IMG/VR virus record: IMGVR_UViG_2740892229_000012
Source of the DNA: a virus
Taxonomy: Duplodnaviria; Heunggongvirae; Uroviricota; Caudoviricetes
DNA length: 8,918 bases
Direction: 5' to 3' (one strand)
The notes below the pieces were generated by a model, which was not told where the DNA came from, did not search any database, and worked only from the letters and a program-made list of their open reading frames with translations. Each line of letters begins with the position of its first letter. Within the stretch, counting starts at the first letter, position 1. Shown one piece after another: positions 1 to 8,918 of the stretch. A program made the translations under genes and the position numbers.

Positions 1-1
1 C

Positions 2-592
2 GGCAAAAGTATCACCCCCGATGATGTGCGTCCGATGCTTGAGCAGATGGTGAAAGAGGCCGTAAGCCATATCCCTGCTCCGCGTGATGGTCGTGATTAC
101 GATCCGGAAGTACTGAAGCAGGCGGTTCTGGAGGCGGTGAATGCCCTTCCGGCTCCGCAGGACGGGCGTGATGCCACGGCACTGGAAGTGCTCCCCGCTA
201 TTGACGATCAAAAATCCTTTCCCCGGGGCACGTATGCCACACACCTGGGTGGACTCTGGCGGGCGTATGAAAAAACGCACGGGATGCGGGGATGGGAATG
301 CCTGGTTGACGGGGTGGCGGATATCGACGTCAGCATGACGGATGAGCGGTTGTTCTCTGTGGTGATCCGGCAGAGCAGTGGCCAGTGTACGGAAAAAACA
401 TTTTCCCTGCCGGTGATGCTCTACCGCGGTGTGTTCAGAGCCGGTGAAACCTACCACCCCGGCGATACGGTGACGTGGGGGGGCTCGCTGTGGCACTGCA
501 ACAGTATGACCGGTGATAAACCCGGAGAAGCTCATTCATCAGGCTGGACCCTGGCTGCAAAACGTGGACGGGATGCAGGAGGCGGAAAATGA
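2..592 (+). CDS. Phage head-module protein of unknown function, 5'-truncated at window edge (196 aa visible)
   Basis: Reading frame is open from position 2 to the TGA at 590-592 (ORF track lists the 26..592 part from a GTG). Its stop overlaps the next start as ATGA, so it is co-transcribed with the head-tail joining genes. No family recognised from the translation; contains a tandem 25-aa repeat with motif EAV..(I/L)PAP(R/Q)DGRD. Confidence 0.55.
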   Translation, partial: GKSITPDDVRPMLEQMVKEAVSHIPAPRDGRDYDPEVLKQAVLEAVNALPAPQDGRDATALEVLPAIDDQKSFPRGTYATHLGGLWRAYEKTHGMRGWECLVDGVADIDVSMTDERLFSVVIRQSSGQCTEKTFSLPVMLYRGVFRAGETYHPGDTVTWGGSLWHCNSMTGDKPGEAHSSGWTLAAKRGRDAGGGK

Positions 593-915
593 CGGCATTA
601 CTGACACTGGAAGAGATCAAGGCACATCTGCGTGTTGACCATGACGCGGATGATGACATGCTGATGGACAAGGTTCGTCAGGCTACCGCCGTGCTGCTGG
701 CCTACATTCAGGGCAGCCGGGATAAAGTGATTCGTGAGGACGGTGAGCTGATCCCGGGCGAGGCATTAACCCGGATGAAGGGGGCTGCCATGCGACTGAC
801 CGGGATGCTGTACCGGAATCCGGATCTTGCTGAGCGGGAAGACCTCGTGCAGGGGGAACTGCCGTTTTCTGTTTCCGTGCTGATTTACGATTTGCGTTGT
901 CCGACGGTGTTATGA
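589..915 (+). CDS. gp6-like head-tail connector (adaptor) protein, 108 aa
   Basis: ATG 589 overlaps the upstream stop (ATGA). The N-terminus 'LTLEEIKAHLRVDHDADDDMLMDKV' and the ~108 aa size fit the phage gp6-like head-tail connector family (HK97 gp6 / SPP1 gp15 type). Family assignment is from recall, not a search. Confidence 0.8.
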   Translation: MTALLTLEEIKAHLRVDHDADDDMLMDKVRQATAVLLAYIQGSRDKVIREDGELIPGEALTRMKGAAMRLTGMLYRNPDLAEREDLVQGELPFSVSVLIYDLRCPTVL

Positions 916-1204
916 GGAGGGGGGGATGGCAATATCTGCAGGTCGTCTGACACAGATGATCAGTGTTCTGAACCCGGTGTTAACCCGTAATGCTGCCGGA
1001 GAAATGACGGAAGAATGGGTGTCATGCGGGAAANNNNNNNNNNGTCCGTGCTGATTTACGATTTGCGTTGTCCGACGGTGTTATGAGGAGGGAGGAATGG
1101 CAATATCTGCAGGTCGTCTGACACAGATGATAAGTGTTCTGAAGCCGGTGTTAACCCGTAATGCTGCCGGAGAAATGACGGAAGAATGGGTGTCATGCGG
1201 GAAA
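874..1204. repeat. Scaffold-overlap duplicate: 874..1033 and 1045..1204 flank N10 gap 1034..1043
   Basis: Direct duplicate of 160 bp at offset 171 with about 5 mismatches, covering the 3' end of the connector gene, its RBS and the 5' end of the head-tail joining gene. The copies abut the N run on both sides, the signature of overlapping contig ends that were not merged. Confidence 0.85.
926..1033 (+). CDS. Head-tail joining protein, allele A, 5' fragment (36 codons) cut by scaffold gap
   Basis: ATG 926 preceded by GAGGAGG; translation MAISAGRLTQMISVLNPV... matches the start of the complete copy at 1097 apart from N->K. Runs into the N10 gap at 1034..1043. Confidence 0.6.
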
Positions 1205-1447
1205 ATTCATGCGGATATCCGTGGCAGGAGCAGCCGGGAGCGGATGCAGTCCGGTGCGGAAATGGCGCAGGCGGAAATCCGCATCTGGGTGCGCGGTCAG
1301 TCCGGCCGGGAAATCACGGCAGCGTCACGACTTCATGTGCTGAGTGGTCCATGGCGTGACCGGATCCTGAACGTTGTCGGGCTGCCCGTGCCGGATGCGA
1401 CCGGCGGGCGTCTGGAAATTCTCTGTCGGCTGGGAGGGGAAAAATGA
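1097..1447 (+). CDS. Head-tail joining (head closure) protein, 116 aa
   Basis: ATG 1097 preceded by GAGGAGGGAGGA; stop overlaps the next start (ATGA at 1444-1447). Size and position directly after the gp6-like gene fit the HK97 gp7 / SPP1 gp16 type head-tail joining family. Confidence 0.75.
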   Translation: MAISAGRLTQMISVLKPVLTRNAAGEMTEEWVSCGKIHADIRGRSSRERMQSGAEMAQAEIRIWVRGQSGREITAASRLHVLSGPWRDRILNVVGLPVPDATGGRLEILCRLGGEK

Positions 1448-1890
1448 TCGAAACCCTGCTGGATTTTTCGGGGCTGGAGGACATCAGCCGCGATTTGCAG
1501 CTTCTGAGTGGTGCGGAAAATAACCGGGTGCTGCGTGAGGCAACCCGTGCGGGTGCGAATGTGCTGAAAGAAGAAGTGGTGTCACGGGCACCGGTACGCA
1601 GGGGAAAACTGCGCCGCAATGTGGTGGTCCTTTCCCGGCGCTCCCGCGATGGCGGGATGGAATCCGGTGTCCATATCCGTGGTGTTAATCCGGACACCGG
1701 TAACAGCGATAACACCATGAAGGCGGATAACCCGCGCAATGCTTTCTACTGGCGGTTTGTGGAAATGGGGACCGTGAATATGCCACCGCACCCGTTTGTG
1801 CGCCCGGCGTTTGATGTGCGCAGTGAACAGGCAGCTCAGGTGGCGATTGCGCGGATGAACCGGGCCATTGATGAGGTACTGAGACGATGA
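1444..1890 (+). CDS. HK97 gp10-family tail completion (neck) protein, 148 aa
   Basis: ATGA overlaps at both ends. Size, position and the C-terminal 'PPHPFVRPAFD' region fit the HK97 gp10 family as I recall it. Confidence 0.75.
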   Translation: MIETLLDFSGLEDISRDLQLLSGAENNRVLREATRAGANVLKEEVVSRAPVRRGKLRRNVVVLSRRSRDGGMESGVHIRGVNPDTGNSDNTMKADNPRNAFYWRFVEMGTVNMPPHPFVRPAFDVRSEQAAQVAIARMNRAIDEVLRR

Positions 1891-2231
1891 CGGAGGCGGA
1901 TTTGTATCCTTATCTGGCGCATCTTGCCGGCGGGCAGGTGTACCCGTATGTGGTCCCCCTGCTGGATGGCAGGCCGTCGGTGGCGCTTCCGTGGGTGGTT
2001 TTCAGCCTGATTTCATCGGTGTCGGCGGACGTGATGGGCGGGCAGGCGGAGTCCTCAGTGTCGGTGCAGATAGACGTTTATGCCGGGACTGTGACGCAGG
2101 CGCGTCAGATACGTCAGGACGCCCGTGAAGCCATAATGCTGCTGGCCCCGGGATCCGTCAGTGAAATGCAGGACTATATTCCGGAAAACCGCTGTTACCG
2201 TGCAACCCTGGAGTTTCAGGTCACGGTGTGA
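1887..2231 (+). CDS. Tail terminator-like protein (DUF3168-type), 114 aa
   Basis: ATG 1887 overlaps the upstream stop. About 114 aa and located immediately upstream of the major tail gene, the canonical tail terminator position (functional analogue of lambda gpU). Family is inferred mainly from position and size. Confidence 0.65.
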   Translation: MTEADLYPYLAHLAGGQVYPYVVPLLDGRPSVALPWVVFSLISSVSADVMGGQAESSVSVQIDVYAGTVTQARQIRQDAREAIMLLAPGSVSEMQDYIPENRCYRATLEFQVTV

Positions 2232-2246
2232 CTTTTTCTTTTTTTT

Positions 2247-2364
2247 CTACAAAACCCATACCCCGCCGCGTGCGGGTTTTTTATTATCAGGAGGCAGAAT
2301 NNNNNNNNNNCTACAAAACCCATACCCCGCCGCGTGCGGGTTTTTTATTATCAGGAGGCAGAAT
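2247..2364. repeat. Scaffold-overlap duplicate: 2247..2300 and 2311..2364 flank N10 gap 2301..2310
   Basis: The 54 bp 'ctacaaaacccataccccgccgcgtgcgggttttttattatcaggaggcagaat' is repeated identically on both sides of the N run. It contains the hairpin, the RBS and the first two bases of the major tail start codon. Confidence 0.9.
2315..2346 (+). terminator. Intrinsic-terminator-like hairpin plus T6 tract upstream of the major tail gene
   Basis: Stem CCCGC (2326-2330) / GCGGG (2336-2340) with loop CGCGT, followed by TTTTTT 2341-2346 and preceded by AAAA 2315-2318. A duplicate copy lies at 2251..2282 (scaffold artefact). SD AGGAGG at 2353-2358 and ATG 2363 follow. Confidence 0.5.
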
Positions 2365-3079
2365 GTCTGCTTTGTATGAACGCTCACAGCTGACGCAGGT
2401 GATGATTTCATCTGCCCCGGCGACTGCTGAAACTATGGATAAGGCGGAATATCTGCGCCTGGACTGCACCATCAAGGAAGTCCAGTTCACCGCCGGTCAG
2501 AAACAGGATATTGATGTGACCACGCTCTGCTCCACAGAGCAGGAGAACATCAACGGTCTGGGGGCGTCGTCCGAGATTTCCATGTCGGGTAATTTTTATC
2601 TGAATCAGGCCCAGAACGCCCTGCGTGATGCCTATGACAATGACACGGTGTATGCGTTTAAGGTGCAGTTTCCGTCCGGTAAGGGCTTTAAGTTCCTGGC
2701 GGAAGTGCGTCAGCACACCTGGTCATCCGGTACCAACGGCGTGGTGGCTGCAACGTTTTCACTTCGCCTGAAGGGTAAACCGGTGTCCTATGTGGTACCG
2801 CTGGCGTTTGTGAAAAATCTGGAGAAGACACTTACCGTGAATACCGGTGCGCTGCTGACAATGTCAGTCAGTGTCAACGGGGGAACGCCGCCTTATAAAT
2901 ACGCCTGGAAGAAGGATGGTCAGCCGGTCGAGGGACAGACTACTGACACTTTCAGTAAAGCCAATGCGCAGTCAGGTGATAAGGGGGCTTATACCTGCAT
3001 GGTAATGGATTCTGCAGAACAGCCGCAGAGCATTACCTCTGATGCGTGTACGGTAACGGTTAATGGTGCGGGCGGATAA
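2363..3079 (+). CDS. Major tail (tail tube) protein with C-terminal Ig-like domain, 238 aa
   Basis: ATG 2363 with AGGAGG at 2353-2358; the ORF-track 283 aa version is an artefactual N-terminal extension across the N gap. Residues ~152-236 (nt ~2816..3070) carry an Ig-like signature: PPYKYAWKKDGQPVEG...GDKGAYTCMV...TVTV. Position between terminator protein and chaperone genes supports major tail identity. Confidence 0.85.
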   Translation: MSALYERSQLTQVMISSAPATAETMDKAEYLRLDCTIKEVQFTAGQKQDIDVTTLCSTEQENINGLGASSEISMSGNFYLNQAQNALRDAYDNDTVYAFKVQFPSGKGFKFLAEVRQHTWSSGTNGVVAATFSLRLKGKPVSYVVPLAFVKNLEKTLTVNTGALLTMSVSVNGGTPPYKYAWKKDGQPVEGQTTDTFSKANAQSGDKGAYTCMVMDSAEQPQSITSDACTVTVNGAGG

Positions 3080-3335
3080 GGCTTATGGCAAAAGATCTGA
3101 AAACACTGGCGCNNNNNNNNNNCACGCCTGGAAGAAGGATGGTCAGCCGGTAGAGGGACAGACTACTGACACTTTCAGTAAAGCCAATACGCAGTCAGGT
3201 GATAAGGGGGCTTATACCTGCGAGGTAACGGATTCTGCAGAACAGCCGCAGAGCATTACCTCTGATGCGTGTACAGTAACGGTTAATGGTGCGGGCGGAT
3301 AAGGCTTATGGCAAAAGATCTGAAAACACTGGCGC
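2901..3335. repeat. Scaffold-overlap duplicate: 2901..3112 and 3124..3335 flank N10 gap 3113..3122
   Basis: Direct duplicate of 212 bp at offset 223 with 6 nucleotide differences. Covers the 3' end of the major tail gene (Ig-like domain) and the start of the chaperone gene. Confidence 0.85.
3123..3302 (+). CDS. Major tail protein, allele B, 3' fragment (Ig-like domain C-terminus), partial
   Basis: In frame from the first base after the N gap to TAA 3300-3302; translation HAWKKDGQPVEGQTTDTFSKANTQSGDKGAYTCEVTDSAEQPQSITSDACTVTVNGAGG differs from 2363..3079 at A->T, M->E and M->T. Confidence 0.7.
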   Translation, partial: HAWKKDGQPVEGQTTDTFSKANTQSGDKGAYTCEVTDSAEQPQSITSDACTVTVNGAGG

Positions 3336-3682
3336 TGGCCAGACTGTCGGGGTTCCGTCATAAAACGGTGAAGGTGCCGGAATGGAGAAATGTCAGCGTG
3401 GTGCTGCGGGAGCCTTCGGCAGAGGCCTGGTATCTGTGGCAGGAAGTGCTCAATGGTGATGGAGAGGATGACGATACCCTGTCGGTGGTGGCGAAAACCC
3501 GCCGTAACCTGGAAGCGGATGTGACGCTGTTCTGCGATGTCCTGTGTGATACTGACCTGCAACGGGTGTTCACTCCGGACGACCGTGAGCAGGTGCTGGC
3601 CGTCTATGGTCCGGTACATGCCCGGTTGCTGCGTCAGGCACTGGAACTGATCGCTGATGCAGAGTCGGCCAGAAAAAAGTAG
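3308..3682 (+). CDS. Tail assembly chaperone (lambda gpG functional analogue), 124 aa
   Basis: ATG 3308 lies 5 nt after the major tail stop; acidic ~124 aa protein directly upstream of the tape measure gene and ending at the slippery heptamer, the conserved chaperone arrangement. A truncated allele-A start copy lies at 3085..3112. Confidence 0.75.
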   Translation: MAKDLKTLALARLSGFRHKTVKVPEWRNVSVVLREPSAEAWYLWQEVLNGDGEDDDTLSVVAKTRRNLEADVTLFCDVLCDTDLQRVFTPDDREQVLAVYGPVHARLLRQALELIADAESARKK

Positions 3683-3987
3683 CCCGCCCGGAAATTCGCT
3701 TTCTGATGCGACTTGCGCTCCGTCTGGGGCGCACCTTATCCGAACTGCGGCACAGCCTGAGTGCGAGCGAGGCGATGATGTGGATGGAGTTCGACAGGGT
3801 ATCCCCGCTGGGTGATGAGCGCGGGGATATCCGTAATGCACAGATCGTGAAAGCGGTTTTCGGGGCACAGGGGATGAATGTTGCACTGAAGGACGCCATG
3901 CTCTGCTGGGGCGAGGATGAGGATAAGCCGGAGGTGGATCCGTTTGCGGCGCTGGAAGACGCGCTGAGCTTCGCAGCACAGTCATGA
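3308..3987 (+). CDS. Tail assembly chaperone GT-like fusion produced by programmed -1 ribosomal frameshift (predicted)
   Basis: The 0-frame ends ...R K K stop at 3680-3682. The -1 frame opens at 3658 (stop at 3655-3657), just upstream of the slippery site, and runs to TGA 3985-3987. The ORF-track entry 3706..3987 has no convincing SD of its own. Confidence 0.65.
3673..3679 (+). promoter_or_regulatory. -1 frameshift slippery heptamer A_AAA_AAG
   Basis: A AAA AAG is read as codons AAA(3674-3676) AAG(3677-3679) in the chaperone frame, immediately before its TAG stop. This is the same heptamer type as the E. coli dnaX frameshift site. Confidence 0.65.
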
Positions 3988-3995
3988 ATGATGAG

Positions 3996-4016
3996 AACCG
4001 CTGAGGCGGTTTTTTT
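3996..4016 (+). terminator. Hairpin plus T7 tract between the GT chaperone and tape measure genes (putative partial intrinsic terminator)
   Basis: Stem AACCGC (3996-4001) / GCGGTT (4006-4011), tetraloop TGAG, T run 4010-4016. Lies 9 nt after the T-frame stop; the tape measure RBS GGAGAAAGG (4023-4031) and ATG 4035 follow. Confidence 0.4.
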
Positions 4017-4034
4017 ACGCCCGGAGAAAGGTGA

Positions 4035-7000
4035 ATGGCGACGTTACGTGAACTGATTATCAAAATTTCGGCAAATTCGCAGTCATTCCAGTCGGAGATC
4101 CAGCGGGCTTCCCGTATGGGCAGTGAATATTACCGGACCCTGCAGAATGGCGGGCGTCAGGCCGCTGCGGCAGCCCGGGAGCAGCGACGTGCCCTGGCAG
4201 AACTGAACAGCCAGTTGACGGAAATTCGCGGTTCTGCTGTCGGAATGGCTGGCGCATTTGCCGGTGCCTTTGCCACCGGACACCTGATTTCACTGGCGGA
4301 TGAGTGGAGTTCCGTGAATGCCCGTCTGAAACAGGCGTCGCAGTCATCTGATGAATTTTCGTCATCACAGAAAGTGCTGATGGATATCAGCCAGCGGACA
4401 GGCACCGCATTTTCGGATAATGCGGCCCTGTTTGCCCGCTCAGCCGCCTCAATGCGTGAATATGGTTACAGTGCTGATGATGTGCTTAAGGTGACGGAGG
4501 CCATTTCCACAGGGCTGAAAATCTCCGGTGCCAGTACGGCAGAGGCGGGCTCGGTGATCACCCAGTTCNNNNNNNNNNTTCGGCTGCCTCGATGCGTGAA
4601 TATGGTTACAGTGCTGATGATGTGCTGAAGGTGACGGAGGCCATTTCGACAGGGCTGAAAATCTCCGGTGCCAGTACGGCAGAGGCGGGCTCGGTGATCA
4701 CCCAGTTCAGTCAGGCGCTGGCGCAGGGTGTATTGCGTGGTGAGGAGTTTAATTCGGTCAATGAAAGTGGTGACCGGATCGTACGTGCACTGGCTGCGGG
4801 TATGGGCGTGGCCCGTAAAGATCTGAAGGCAATGGCGGATGACGGAAAACTGACAGCGGATAAAGTGGTCCCCGCGTTAATCAGCCAGCTGGGGATATTA
4901 CGTGATGAATATGCGGCCATGCCGGAAACGGTTTCCAGTAGTATCACGAAGGTGGAAAACGCCTTTATGGCCTGGGTGGGCGGTGCGAATGAGGCCAGCG
5001 GGGTGACGAAAACGCTCTCCGGCGTGCTGAACGGTGTTGCCGGACAGATTGATAATGTGGCAACAGCCGTGGGGGCACTGGTTGCCGTCGGGGTTGCCCG
5101 GTACTTTGGCAATATGGCCTCCGGAGCGATGTCTGCCACGGCAGGACTTGTGACTGCTGCACGTAATGAAGTTGCACTGGCGGAAGCACAGTTCAGGGGA
5201 ACGCAGATTGCCACGGCGCGGGCAAGAGCAGCCGTGTACTGTGCTCAGCAGGCCGTGGCGGCAGCCCGCGGGACGGAGATGCAGATTGCAGCAGAGGCCC
5301 GTCTGGCGGCCACACAGGAACGCCTGAACAGAAATATTGCTGCCAGAAGCGCCGCCCAGAATGCGCTGAACAGTACAACGGCGGTGGGCTCACGTCTGAT
5401 GAGCGGTGCGCTGGGGCTGGTTGGTGGCGTACCCGGACTGGTGATGCTGGGGGCTGCAGCATGGTACACGCTGTACCAGAATCAGGAGCAGGCCAGGGAG
5501 TCTGCGCGCCAGTATGCACTGACGATAGATGAAATCGCGCATAACACGCCGTCAATGTCTTTGCCTGAAGCCTCAGATAATGAAGGACGAACACGGGCGG
5601 CGCTGACAGAGCAGAAGCGGCTGATTGATGAGCAGTCCAGTCGGGTGAAATCCCTGCAGGAACAAATCGCCGGGTATCAGTATGTTCTGGCGAACCCTGG
5701 CTGGACGACCGGTGACGGATTCATGATAAACCATCTGACATCGGTGAAGACCGTAACGGAAGGGCTTGCTCAGGCAACAGAGCAGCTTGCCGTTGAGCAG
5801 TCCCGTCTGGCACAGATGCAGGAAAAAGCGCAGTCCATTCAGGATGTGCTTGCCGGGCTGGAAGACCGTCGTGTGGCGTTAATTCGTCAGCAGGCGGCAG
5901 AGCAGAATAAGGTGTACCAGTCCATGCTGGTTATGAACGGTCAGCATACGGAATTCAACCGTCTGCTGGGGCTGGGTAATGAACTGCTTCAGCAGCGGCA
6001 GGGACTGGTGAATGTGCCGTTACGGCTGCCACAGGCCACTCTGGATGATAAACAGCAGAGTGCCCTGACAAAAACAGAGCGTGAGCTGGCCCTGTCCAGA
6101 CTGAAAGGGGAAGAAAAAGAGCGCGTCCGACTGGGGTATGCGGCGGATGACCTCGGTTTTGTGGGTGATCCGTATCAGGAGGCGAGACAACGTTATATCA
6201 GTAATGCCCTGGAAGCCTGGCGCAATAACGAGGCGAATAAACCCAAATCCCGGGGTGGAAAATCAGAGACGGAAAAAGCGGAAGACAGTTTTTCCCGGCT
6301 GCTGAAGCAGCAGAAAGAGCAACTGGCACTGGCCGGTCAGAACACGGAGCTGGCGAAGCTGAAGTACCAGACAGCGCTGGGTGAACTGAAAACCCTGTCG
6401 GAGATACAGAAGCAGGAACTGCTGCGTAACGCGGCCCTGATTGACCAGCAAAAAATCCGGGAACAGTTGCGATCCCGGGAAGAGACCCTGAAGAATGATA
6501 ATGTGGCTGCGCGTGCATCAAATGAAGCCGAACTGCTGGGGTACGGGCAGGGAGAACGAGCCAGGGAACGCATGCGGGAGTTGCAGCAGATCCGCGACAG
6601 CTTCCGCCAGAAGGATGCGGACCTTCAGTCTCAGTATCAGACCGGGGATATCAGTGAGGATTTTTACAGACAGGCTCTGGCGCAGAATGCACAGTATCTG
6701 AGTGAACGTCTGAAAGAGCAGGAAGCCTTTTATGCCGAATCGGATGTGCAGCGTGCGGACTGGCAGAAAGGGCTGCAGGAGGGATTCAGTAACTGGGTGG
6801 ACAATGCATCCGATTACGCCTCTCAGGCAGCACAGCTGGCAACGGAGGGGATTTCAGGACTGGTGAATAACATCACGGAGATGCTGAACGGAAACAAAGT
6901 GGAATGGCGCAACTGGGCCTCATCCGTACTGCAGGAAATATCAAAAGTTCTTATGAATGCGGCCATTGTCAACGGAATTAAGACGGCGGCAAACGGTATG

Positions 7001-7417
7001 TCCGGTGCGGGAGGATTTCTCGGCAGCATTGGTGACTGGCTGGGCGGAGCGGTGGCCAATGCAAAAGGCGGCGTGTATACCTCGGCAAACCTGAGTGCGT
7101 ACAGCAACAGTATTGTGGATACGCCCACGTACTTTGCGTTTGCAAAAGGGGCCGGGCTGATGGGGGAAGCCGGACCTGAAGCCATTATGCCCCTGACCCG
7201 GGCGGCGGATGGCTCGCTGGGCGTACGCGCGGTGGGCAGTATGAACGGCAGTGCTGGTCTGGTGTATTCCCCGGTCTACCACATCGCCATTCAGAATGAC
7301 GGGGCTAACGGACAGATAGGGCCGGAAGCTGCGGGCAGCCTTGTGCAGCTGATTGACCAGCGGGTGCAGGCGGTGATGCTGTCCATGCGACGTGACGGAG
7401 GAATGCTGAGTGGCTGA
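4035..7417 (+). CDS. Tail tape measure protein (about 1080 aa once the duplicated overlap is collapsed)
   Basis: ATG 4035 with RBS GGAGAAAGG. The ORF is split in the track (4035..4628 and 4592..7417) only by the N10 gap and duplicate. Shows long Ala/Gln/Glu/Arg/Leu-rich stretches (likely coiled coil), two hydrophobic Gly/Ala/Val-rich segments (nt ~5054..5161 and ~5375..5476) and a conserved-looking C-terminal region ending ...GEAGPEAIMPLTRAADGSLGVRAVGS... Position between chaperones and M. Confidence 0.85.
4440..4708. repeat. Scaffold-overlap duplicate: 4440..4568 and 4580..4708 flank N10 gap 4569..4578
   Basis: Direct duplicate of 129 bp at offset 140 inside the tape measure gene with 5 nucleotide differences, all synonymous (both copies encode SAASMREYGYSADDVLKVTEAISTGLKISGASTAEAGSVITQF). 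Confidence 0.85.
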
Positions 7418-7751
7418 GATAAAAACGCTGCATCTGGTCCCGCGTGAAGGGATGCAGGTGAGTGAGAAGCCGTCGGTGGTGAGGGTGCGGTTTGGTGACG
7501 GTTATGAACAGCGCCGCCCCACAGGGCTGAATCCTCAACTGAAGACGTTTCAGGCGGTGTTCCGGGTGACGGATGAGTCAACCCGGCGCTGGCTGGAAGA
7601 GTTTTTATCGTGGCATGGTGGTTACCGTGCCTTTTTGTGGCGACCGCCGAAACATAACCGGACGGTGAGGGTTGTGTGCCGTGAGTGGAGTGTCACGGAT
7701 AATGCCCGGTACAGTGATTTCAGTTGCACGATAGAGCAGGTGGTGAACTGA
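7410..7751 (+). CDS. M: Minor tail protein M (lambda gpM homologue), 113 aa
   Basis: GTG start at 7410 overlaps the tape measure stop (TGA 7415-7417) by 8 nt. The translation (VVRVRFGDGYEQR..., FLWRPP..., C-terminal EQVVN) aligns along its length with lambda M as I recall it, including the N-terminus, which supports the GTG start. Confidence 0.85.
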   Translation: MAEIKTLHLVPREGMQVSEKPSVVRVRFGDGYEQRRPTGLNPQLKTFQAVFRVTDESTRRWLEEFLSWHGGYRAFLWRPPKHNRTVRVVCREWSVTDNARYSDFSCTIEQVVN

Positions 7752-8374
7752 TGCAGGATATTCACGAAGAAAGTCTGAACGAGTCGGTTAAGTCAGAGCA
7801 GTCACCGCGGGTGGTGCTCTGGGAAATCGACCTGACGGTGCAGGGCGGTGAGCGGTATTTTTTCTGCAATGAGCTGAATGAAAAAAGGGAGCCGGTGACC
7901 TGGCAGGGGCGGCAATATCAGGCGTACCCGATTGAGGGCAGTGGCTTTGAGATGAACGGAAAGGGCAGCAGTGCCCGCCCGTCGCTGACGGTGTCCAATC
8001 TGTTCGGTCTTGTCACCGGGATGGCGGAGGATTTGCAGAGCCTGGTGGGTGCCACGGTGGTCCGCCGCCGGGTGTATGCGCGTTTTCTGGATGCGGTGAA
8101 CTTTGTGGCAGGCAATCCGGAGGCCGACCCGGAGCAGGAGCTGACTGACCGGTGGGTGGTGGAGCAGATGTCATCGCTGACGGCCATGACGGCCTCGTTT
8201 GTGCTGGCCACACCGACCGAGACGGACGGGGCGCTGTTTCCCGGTCGCATCATGCTGGCGAACACCTGTATGTGGACCTACCGCTCTGATGAGTGTGGTT
8301 ACACGGGCGGGGCTGTGGCGGATGAGTTCGATAAACCCACCACCGATATCCGTAAGGACAGATGCAGCAAGTGC
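7751..8374 (+). CDS. L: Minor tail protein L (lambda gpL homologue), 3'-truncated by scaffold gap (208 codons present)
   Basis: ATG 7751 overlaps the M stop (TGATG). The translation from MQDIHEESLNE... (VVLWEIDLT, GERYFFCNE, VTWQGRQYQ, ANTC.WTYR, ECGY, KCSKC) is recognisably lambda L-like. The ORF-track start at 7724 is an upstream extension not supported by the homologue N-terminus. Gene runs into the N10 gap at 8375..8384. Confidence 0.9.
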
Positions 8375-8918
8375 NNNNNNNNNNAATATTCACGAAGAAA
8401 GCCTGAACGAGTCGGTTAAATCAGAGCAGTCACCGCGGGTGGTGCTCTGGGAAATTGACCTGACGGTGCAGGGCGGTGAGCGGTATTTTTTCTGTAATGA
8501 GCTGAATGAAAAAGGGGAGGCGGTCACCTGGCAGGGGCGGCAATATCAGGTATACCCGATTGACGGCAGCGGTTTTGAGATGAACGGGAAGGGCAGCAGT
8601 GCCAGACCGTCGCTGACGGTGTCCAATCTGTTTGGTCTGGTCACCGGGATGGCGGAGGACCTGCAGAGTCTGGTGGGGGCCACGGTGGTCCGCCGCCGGG
8701 TGTATGCCCGTTTTCTGGATGCGGTGAATTTTGTGGCGGGCAATCCGGAAGCGGACCCGGAGCAGGAGCTGAGCGACCGCTGGGTGGTGGAGCAGATGTC
8801 AGAGCTGACGGCCATGACAGCCTCGTTTGTGCTGGCAACACCGACGGAGACGGACGGAGCGCTGTTTCCCGGTCGCATCATGCTGGCGAACACCTGTATG
8901 TGGGATTACCGGGGAGAT
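7757..8918. repeat. Scaffold-overlap duplicate: 7757..8290 and 8385..8918 flank N10 gap 8375..8384
   Basis: 534 bp after the gap replays the L gene from codon 3 onward at offset 628, with roughly 5-7% nucleotide divergence and several amino-acid substitutions. Confidence 0.85.
8385..8918 (+). CDS. L: Minor tail protein L, allele B (divergent second copy), internal fragment truncated at both ends
   Basis: Open in frame from 8385 to the window end (178 codons); translation NIHEESLNESVKSEQSPRVVLWEIDLTVQGGERYFFCNELNEKGEAV... parallels 7751..8290 with substitutions such as R->G, P->A, A->V, E->D, T->S, S->E and WTYRSD->WDYRGD. Confidence 0.8.

Follow-up and report, generated by a model that had tools for sequence, protein, structure and literature searches.

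The five duplicated stretches that flank the gaps of the 8,918-nt scaffold analysed here (hereafter, the window) are not a real feature of the prophage from which they come, but an ordinary assembly artefact. Very probably, each pair represents the two arms of a bubble in a k=61 de Bruijn graph of near-identical Escherichia coli prophages, written in series on either side of a 10-N spacer. The window coincides with the whole public WGS record CCPP01000178.1 (GCA_000752895.1), and position 8918 is thus the end of the record.

The window covers the part of a lambdoid, Stx-phage-like E. coli prophage which extends from the head-tail connector to tail protein L, encoding, in this order, the connector, head closure, gp10, gp17 and major tail proteins, the G and T chaperones, the tape measure, M and L. 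Both the gene order and the protein families of the lambdoid tail module are conserved along this span, as judged from Pfam domains and RefSeq product names, and the nucleotide identity to Stx phages is 98%. All genes and duplicated arms lie on the plus strand. The first 592 nt (1-592) hold the 3' part of an ORF located between portal and connector, which RefSeq reports as part of a 'frameshifted portal protein', and a 162-nt tandem repeat holds the left end of the record. They are followed by the connector gene (589-915; 108 aa, Phage_connect_1), the head closure gene (1097-1447), an HK97-gp10-like gene (1444-1890), the gp17 tail completion gene (1887-2231) and a complete major tail protein gene (2363-3079; 238 aa) with a C-terminal Ig-like domain. 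Upstream of the latter, a terminator-like hairpin is found within 2247-2300. Next come the G-like (3308-3682) and T-like (3706-3987) tail assembly chaperone genes, the tape measure gene, present as a 5' part (4035-4568) and a remainder (4579-7417), the M-like minor tail protein gene (7410-7751) and two copies of the tail protein L gene, the first cut at the fifth spacer (7751-8374) and the second reaching the record end (8385-8918).

Exactly five N runs of 10 N each are present in the window, at 1034-1043, 2301-2310, 3113-3122, 4569-4578 and 8375-8384, and after each run the preceding sequence is replayed, in agreement with the coordinates reported in an earlier note made from the sequence alone. 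At gap 1, positions 873-1033 are paired with 1044-1204 (161 nt, offset 171), with five differences including the first base, so that the match proper opens at 874 and 1045. The gap 2 pair, 2247-2300 and 2311-2364, is 54 nt long with an offset of 64 and no differences. At gap 3, 2900-3112 is paired with 3123-3335 (213 nt, offset 223; 2901 and 3124 if the first base is left out), with seven differences, and at gap 4, 4439-4568 is paired with 4579-4708 (130 nt, offset 140), with six. The largest pair is found at gap 5, where 7757-8290 and 8385-8918 (offset 628) show 43 differences in 534 nt (8.1%); the left copy in full is 618 nt long (7757-8374), and 534 nt of the right copy are visible because the record ends at 8918. 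The replay lengths given previously (160, 54, 212, 129 and 534) were each right within one base, the mismatched first base having been left uncounted. A repeat search over the whole window recovered no direct repeats of at least 30 nt beyond these five; since all of them flank gaps, repeats and gaps are fully linked, which chance cannot explain. Chance repeats were rejected also in view of the matches themselves, which span 54-618 nt at 92-100% identity and are the only repeats in the window.

The differences between copies correspond to real prophage alleles. Three paralogous prophages of a single closed genome, that of strain 2013C-4991 (L003, L004 and L013), provided the haplotypes named P1, P2 and P3, P3 being that of L013, and jointly they match 8,867 of the 8,868 called bases of the window. 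All 61 differences between copies are alleles found in linked haplotypes of independent closed E. coli genomes. The stretch 1-872 has no mismatches to P3 and is followed by the left arm of gap 1 (873-1033), which is of P2 type and agrees with L004/L005 at 5/5 variant sites; the right arm (1044-1204), of P1/P3 type, starts at the first variant base and agrees with L003 at 5/5. From 1044 to 2300 the window is 100% identical to P3 and to two gapless contigs from other assemblies (L007 and L010). The left arm of gap 2, the last 54 nt of this stretch (2247-2300), belongs to a haplotype with T8 at 2239-2246, opposite which P1 and P2 carry T6; the right arm (2311-2364) is identical to it in sequence and constitutes a 54-nt node of the T6 haplotype. 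At gap 3, the left arm (2900-3112) includes the 3' end of the major tail gene and the start of the chaperone region and is of P3 type, matching L002 at 7/7 sites, and the right arm (3123-3335) is of P1/P2 type, matching L001, L003, L004 and L005 at 7/7. Both arms of gap 4 lie in the tape measure gene, forming the last 130 nt of its 5' part (P1/P2 type) and the beginning of its remainder (P3 type), and each is matched at 6/6 sites. At gap 5, the left arm is 100% identical to P1, agreeing with L003 at 43/43 sites, and the right copy is of P2/L005 type (99.6-99.8%), agreeing with L004/L005 at 42/43. In 2013C-4991 these two alleles of L reside in separate prophages, at 0.26 and 1.54 Mb, with 100% and 99.6% identity, and they are co-resident as separate prophages in four further closed genomes too; the co-resident versions in one closed genome are 1.27 Mb apart. 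The L gene occurs at six places in 2013C-4991, and among closed E. coli genomes with any match, the module is matched at a median of 2 places, the maximum being 17.

The coding effect of the differences points in the same direction. In the tape measure overlap every difference is a synonymous change of a third codon position; five are readable, and the sixth borders the N run. The major tail overlap contains four replaced codons (Y180H, A202T, M213E and M215T) and two synonymous changes, and the L overlap contains nine replaced codons against 26 synonymous ones. Such synonymous-rich differences have the pattern of real diverged genes and not that of sequencing errors. The earlier note had described the tape measure differences as synonymous, had reported replacements in the major tail and L overlaps and had ascribed the divergence to real, selected homologues, and these observations were borne out by both the codons and the linked haplotypes.

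The boundaries of the duplicated pieces are those expected of arms in a graph with k=61. The right piece begins exactly at a variant base in 4/4 substitution cases, and at gaps 1, 3 and 4 exactly 60 nt separate the last variant from the end of the left piece (973 to 1033, 3052 to 3112 and 4508 to 4568). Within arms, consecutive variants are spaced by at most 49 nt, and in the stand-in haplotypes the shared flanks extend for at least 72 nt upstream and at least 78 nt downstream. For gap 2, an arm of 54 nt (60-6) leads one to expect T6 opposite T8, and T6 is the allele carried by P1 and P2. A compacted de Bruijn graph was built from the three 2013C-4991 prophages with k from 21 to 127: at k=61, nodes were string-identical to 7/8 arms, including the gap 1 left arm as an exact node owned by P2 and the gap 2 right arm as an exact node owned by both P1 and P2, and at every other k the number of identical arms was 0. 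The gap 5 left arm (7757-8374) is not one node in this three-prophage graph. A variant is present at 8314, that is, 8374 minus 60, but the stand-ins L004/L005 also differ at 8332, 8335 and 8344; with these as partner the last difference is 8344 rather than 8314, so the source would need another L-gene paralogue. Two other closed genomes do carry the haplotype predicted for this partner, at 100% identity. Branching of the versions at 8375 was also considered as the cause of the end of the left piece and was rejected, as all seven reference loci remain identical for about 37 nt beyond that point.

Removal of one copy per gap results in a sequence of 7,776 bp, collinear with the prophage of a closed genome (7,775 bp in L002), and the collapsed gene lengths (327, 351, 447, 345, 717, 375, 282, 3243 and 342 nt) are identical to those of the RefSeq annotation. 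In the gapless contigs, both pieces of gap 2 are found at 100% identity and overlap by exactly 54 nt; the sequence is therefore single copy there.

These observations are best explained by a short-read scaffold of an E. coli genome, of the Shiga-toxin type, carrying several nearly identical lambdoid prophages. The tail modules of such prophages would collapse in a k=61 graph where at least 61 nt are shared and would open into bubbles where the differences sit closer together. At five places, the scaffolder would have included the two arms of a bubble consecutively in a single path and, the arms being unmergeable, would have separated them by its fixed minimum spacer of 10 N. The arm preceding this spacer would stop 60 nt past the last difference, where the versions converge, and the arm after the spacer would open at the first difference, its node being written without the first k-1 shared bases. 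Along its length, the scaffold path would also pass between prophage versions. In Velvet-type output the minimum scaffold gap is 10 N and nodes are printed without their first k-1 bases, and an assembler of this type may have produced the record; its name is uncertain because a 54-nt bubble with a 2-base indel would normally be merged by the default bubble removal of Velvet, and a search of the full-text literature returned no usable citable statement of the 10-N minimum. SPAdes also introduces an artificial 10-N gap, but output of that type is less likely, both because k=61 is not among its default values and because contigs that retain the first k shared bases would be expected to open upstream of the first difference.

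The same mechanism could in principle have acted on a mixed sample, in which at least two strains, or a subpopulation, brought in one prophage version each. Paralogues and strain variants are inseparable by sequence alone, the geometry of the bubbles being identical in either case, but all three haplotypes exist as separate prophages within single closed genomes, one of which explains all but one base of the window; moreover, genomes with matches commonly hold more than one place for the module, as reported above, and the record is filed under a genome assembly accession and not a metagenome. A mixed origin is thus improbable, and we infer that these paralogues are present in the source isolate itself. 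Where the earlier note had left co-resident prophages and strain heterogeneity side by side, co-residence appears much likelier. Its reading of the gaps as unmerged overlaps of assembly pieces holds in so far as the pieces are unmerged, but they are k=61 bubble arms placed in series and not ordinary overlaps of contig ends; similarly, the alleles are those of real, related prophages which are co-resident in one closed genome, but at least three of them are interleaved and not two.

The remaining explanations concern the copies themselves. Extension of both contig edges into a gap of zero length, with the differences due to sequencing or consensus errors, would agree with the identical copies at gap 2 and with the known tendency of gap closers to leave overlapping edges. 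This is nevertheless very improbable, given that every one of the differences coincides with a linked haplotype allele of independent closed genomes and that they are strongly skewed to synonymous changes; besides, read-based extension would not halt exactly 60 nt past the last variant each time. Genuine tandem duplications separated by a short unsequenced stretch are hardly credible, the appearance of the record itself being what speaks for them. No duplication at this locus was present in the closed-genome or gapless-contig matches examined, and the two copies are haplotypes of different prophages. Offsets of 64, 223, 140 and 628 nt are not multiples of 3, and duplications of this kind would leave both the tape measure gene and the L gene split. 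Nor would a duplication offer any reason for a start at a variant base and an end 60 nt past a variant at the four measurable junctions, or for string identity to k=61 nodes derived from another genome.

Judged by its matches to the stand-in prophages, the window interleaves at least three prophage haplotypes, and switches between them are probably hidden inside gap-free stretches as well, extending the patchwork beyond the gaps. One apparent gapless switch is located at about 760-872, and three are found in 4579-8374, from P3 to P1 (about 4649-4780), from P1 to P3 (about 5978-6003) and back from P3 to P1 (about 7340-7597). At the second of these three, the stand-in haplotypes share only 26 nt, which is too short for a path switch at k=61; slight differences between the source prophages and the stand-ins would have to be assumed. 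Among 5,426 closed E. coli genomes, the best match to 4579-8374 reaches 98.4%. It is conceivable, though unlikely, that this stretch is a genuine tape measure/M/L region that arose by recombination between prophages co-resident in the source isolate and not a chimeric path; the duplicates at the gaps would be artefacts regardless.

In heterotype false duplication, an assembly retains both haplotypes of one locus, often on a single scaffold, and the gap that separates such a false pair has been described as a hallmark (Ko et al. 2022, PMC9516828). The window resembles these cases in having two diverged versions of one locus in series across a gap, haplotype-specific sequence in each copy and false extra or split genes. 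Unlike them, it most likely draws its 'haplotypes' from paralogous prophages in a haploid bacterium and not from the alleles of a diploid; its pieces are short (54-618 nt), and 7/8 arms coincide exactly with one node of a de Bruijn graph. The likeness to unpopped bubble arms lies in the boundaries, as such arms, too, run from the first difference to a point k-1 nt past the last; in the usual handling of bubbles, however, one arm is discarded or the two are output as separate contigs, whereas here both are found in one scaffold. The failure of short reads on homologous prophages of Shiga toxin-producing E. coli (STEC) has been described (PMC10925052). The Stx-converting and related lambdoid prophages of STEC O157, O26, O103 and O111 share the gene order of the window and its lambda-like tail module, and the full length of the window matches Stx1a and Stx2a phages and prophages of O26:H11 11368 at 97-98% identity. 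Compared with these prophages it shows no biological difference, except that it is a patchwork of at least three modules and not one phage.

The consequences for gene content are direct. The ORF at 926-1054, which arises from the left arm of gap 1, is a second, truncated head closure start, and that at 3123-3302 is a 59-aa Ig-domain ORF originated by the right arm of gap 3. Both are among the public gene calls on the record, which also divide the tape measure gene into two pieces, the second called from 4579 and not from 4592, and list two partial L genes, consistent with the previous warning that extra or split ORFs near the gaps should not be read as biology. The truncated head closure start, the extra Ig ORF, the split tape measure and the two partial L genes are all absent in the organism. 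The significance of the finding is that of a data-quality warning only: the record is unfit for prophage typing, allele calls and the inference of recombination or gene gain. A simple rule allows the same artefact to be recognized elsewhere: the piece to the right of the spacer opens at a variant position, and the one to its left closes k-1 nt past such a position.

The window is interrupted at exactly five places by runs of 10 N (1034-1043, 2301-2310, 3113-3122, 4569-4578 and 8375-8384). Local alignment across each of them showed the preceding sequence to be replayed, ungapped, at offsets of 171, 64, 223, 140 and 628, respectively. The left and right copies are 873-1033 and 1044-1204 at gap 1 (5 differences), 2247-2300 and 2311-2364 at gap 2 (no difference), 2900-3112 and 3123-3335 at gap 3 (7 differences), 4439-4568 and 4579-4708 at gap 4 (6 differences), and 7757-8290 and 8385-8918 at gap 5 (43 differences in 534 nt). 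The full left copy of gap 5 is 7757-8374, since the record stops short of the end of the replay. An independent repeat search found no other direct repeat of at least 30 nt in the window. The replayed flanks described in the earlier note are thus borne out by both approaches, and the repeat lengths it reported were each right to within one base.

The window is identical, base for base, to an entire public WGS record (CCPP01000178.1, 8,918 bp; assembly GCA_000752895.1), and over its whole length it shares 97-98% identity with Stx1a- and Stx2a-converting phages and with prophages in closed genomes of STEC, strain 11368 (O26:H11) among them. The gene order, as annotated by RefSeq in the matching loci, comprises the head-tail connector, head closure, HK97-gp10-like, tail completion gp17 and major tail genes, followed by two tail assembly chaperones, the tape measure, a minor tail protein and tail protein L. 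A 162-nt (54-codon) tandem repeat takes in the left end of the record (window 1-126); in the 11368 prophage (L001 1256-1788) it is present in 3.3 copies of 98% identity inside an ORF between portal and connector. Its copy number varies among prophages, with L001 and L003 carrying one unit more than the reference locus L002. In RefSeq the region as a whole carries the label 'phage portal protein, frameshifted', and another gene call divides it into a portal of 454 aa and an ORF of 299 aa without a Pfam hit. After tail gene L, the 11368 prophage encodes two Arc-family genes and an antirepressor Ant gene (L001 9528-10936), an inserted module within the tail operon, in place of which the other loci have a K-like C40 peptidase gene.

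The gap-flanking duplications are not a real feature of the organism. When one copy per gap is removed, the resulting 7,776 bp are collinear with 7,775 bp of the closed-genome locus L002, and all nine complete genes, of 327, 351, 447, 345, 717, 375, 282, 3243 and 342 nt, take on their exact RefSeq lengths. Of the five offsets only one is divisible by three, and true duplications would therefore break up the tape measure and L genes. At gap 2, the two flanks are each 100% identical to gapless contigs from unrelated assemblies (L007 and L010) and overlap by exactly 54 nt. Between the tail completion and major tail genes, a terminator-like hairpin (CCCGCCGCGTGCGGG, then T6) occurs at 2262-2285 and 2326-2349, its duplication being a product of the gap 2 artefact; just 5' of it, at 2239-2246, lies a T run of variable length (T6, T7 or T8).

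The differences between copies follow a coding pattern typical of diverged functional genes: in the tape measure they are all synonymous changes at third codon positions, in the L overlap 26 codons are changed synonymously and 9 are replaced, and four codons are replaced in the Ig-like domain of the major tail protein. At every variable site, the alleles of the left copy belong to one linked haplotype and those of the right copy to a second, and closed genomes contain both. The left and right haplotypes match, respectively, L004/L005 and L003 at gap 1 (5/5 sites each), L002 and L001/L003/L004/L005 at gap 3 (7/7 each), L003/L004/L005 and L002/L006 at gap 4 (6/6 each), and L003 (43/43) and L004/L005 (42/43) at gap 5, where L003 and L004 are prophages P1 and P2 of the closed genome 2013C-4991, and L005 and L006 are further reference loci. 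In 2013C-4991 the two gap 5 alleles are co-resident, the left at 0.26 Mb (100%) and the right at 1.54 Mb (99.6%), an arrangement repeated in four further closed genomes. The earlier interpretation of the duplicates as overlaps of related prophage alleles is supported.

The geometry of the junctions is that of the two arms of a de Bruijn graph bubble with k=61, the first k-1 shared bases being left out of each node as written. The right piece starts exactly on a variant base in all four substitution cases (1044, 3123, 4579 and 8385), and in the three fully visible pairs the left piece stops exactly 60 nt past the last variant (973 to 1033, 3052 to 3112 and 4508 to 4568). Variants within arms are spaced by at most 49 nt, and beyond the arms the two haplotypes agree over 72 nt or more. 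As 60-6=54, the rule predicts T6 in the hidden partner of gap 2, opposite the T8 of the window; T6 was found in P1 and P2, and T8 in P3 (L013), the third 2013C-4991 prophage. Compacted graphs were built directly from P1, P2 and P3 at each k from 21 to 127: at k=61, nodes were string-identical to seven of the eight tested arms, and at no other k in this range did any node of the three-prophage graph match an arm. The scaffolder evidently placed both arms in one path with a fixed 10-N spacer between them. In Velvet, the minimum gap is written as 10 N and nodes are stored with the first k-1 bases omitted; Velvet-type output would presumably fit the spacers and node form of the window.

The left arm of gap 5 is the one that the three-prophage graph did not yield as a single node; with L004/L005 as stand-in for the partner, the last difference would fall at 8344, versus 8314 by the rule. 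2013C-4991 carries six L-gene paralogues, three of which were used in the graph. Two other closed genomes contain, at 100% identity, the haplotype demanded by the 60-nt rule, which the source would also need to carry. The record ends at 8918, exactly 60 nt past 8858, a site that distinguishes the two closest P2-like haplotypes (G in L004, A in L005); such an end is in keeping with the node-end rule at k=61, although L004 differs also at 8870.

Of the 8,868 called bases, P1, P2 and P3 together account for 8,867, position 4193 being the sole one that matches none of them. Minimum-switch painting assigned 1-872 to P3, 873-1033 to P2, 1044-3112 to P3 (1 mismatch), 3123-4568 to the P1/P2 type (nearest single haplotype L005, 99.7%), 4579-8374 to P3, P1, P3 and P1 in succession, and 8385-8918 to P2. 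The window thus interleaves at least three haplotypes, with changes also inside gap-free stretches. The earlier reading of unmerged contig overlaps from two related alleles is thereby made more precise: the overlaps are k=61 bubble arms, the haplotypes number at least three, and there are probable hidden switches where no gap marks them. The longest gap-free piece, 4579-8374, matches closed E. coli genomes at 98.4% at best when taken whole, and its middle reaches 99.8% with P3 at 1.82 Mb. This mosaic is probably a chimeric assembly path; that it represents a true recombinant prophage region is unlikely. At the internal switch at about 5978-6003, only 26 nt are common to the stand-in haplotypes: either the stand-ins are slightly unlike the source prophages, or this is a real recombination point.

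The failure of short reads on homologous STEC prophages is well documented (PMC10925052), and the artefact is a bacterial, paralogue-driven counterpart of heterotype false duplication, whose listed hallmarks include a gap separating the two duplicates on the same scaffold (PMC9516828). The window holds no new biological feature, and the caution of the earlier note against reading extra or split ORFs near the gaps as biology proved justified. The gap-made fragment ORFs (926-1054, 3123-3302, 4035-4628, 4579-7417, 7751-8419 and 8385-8918) stand among the public gene calls of the record, and the artefact has thus propagated into protein databases.
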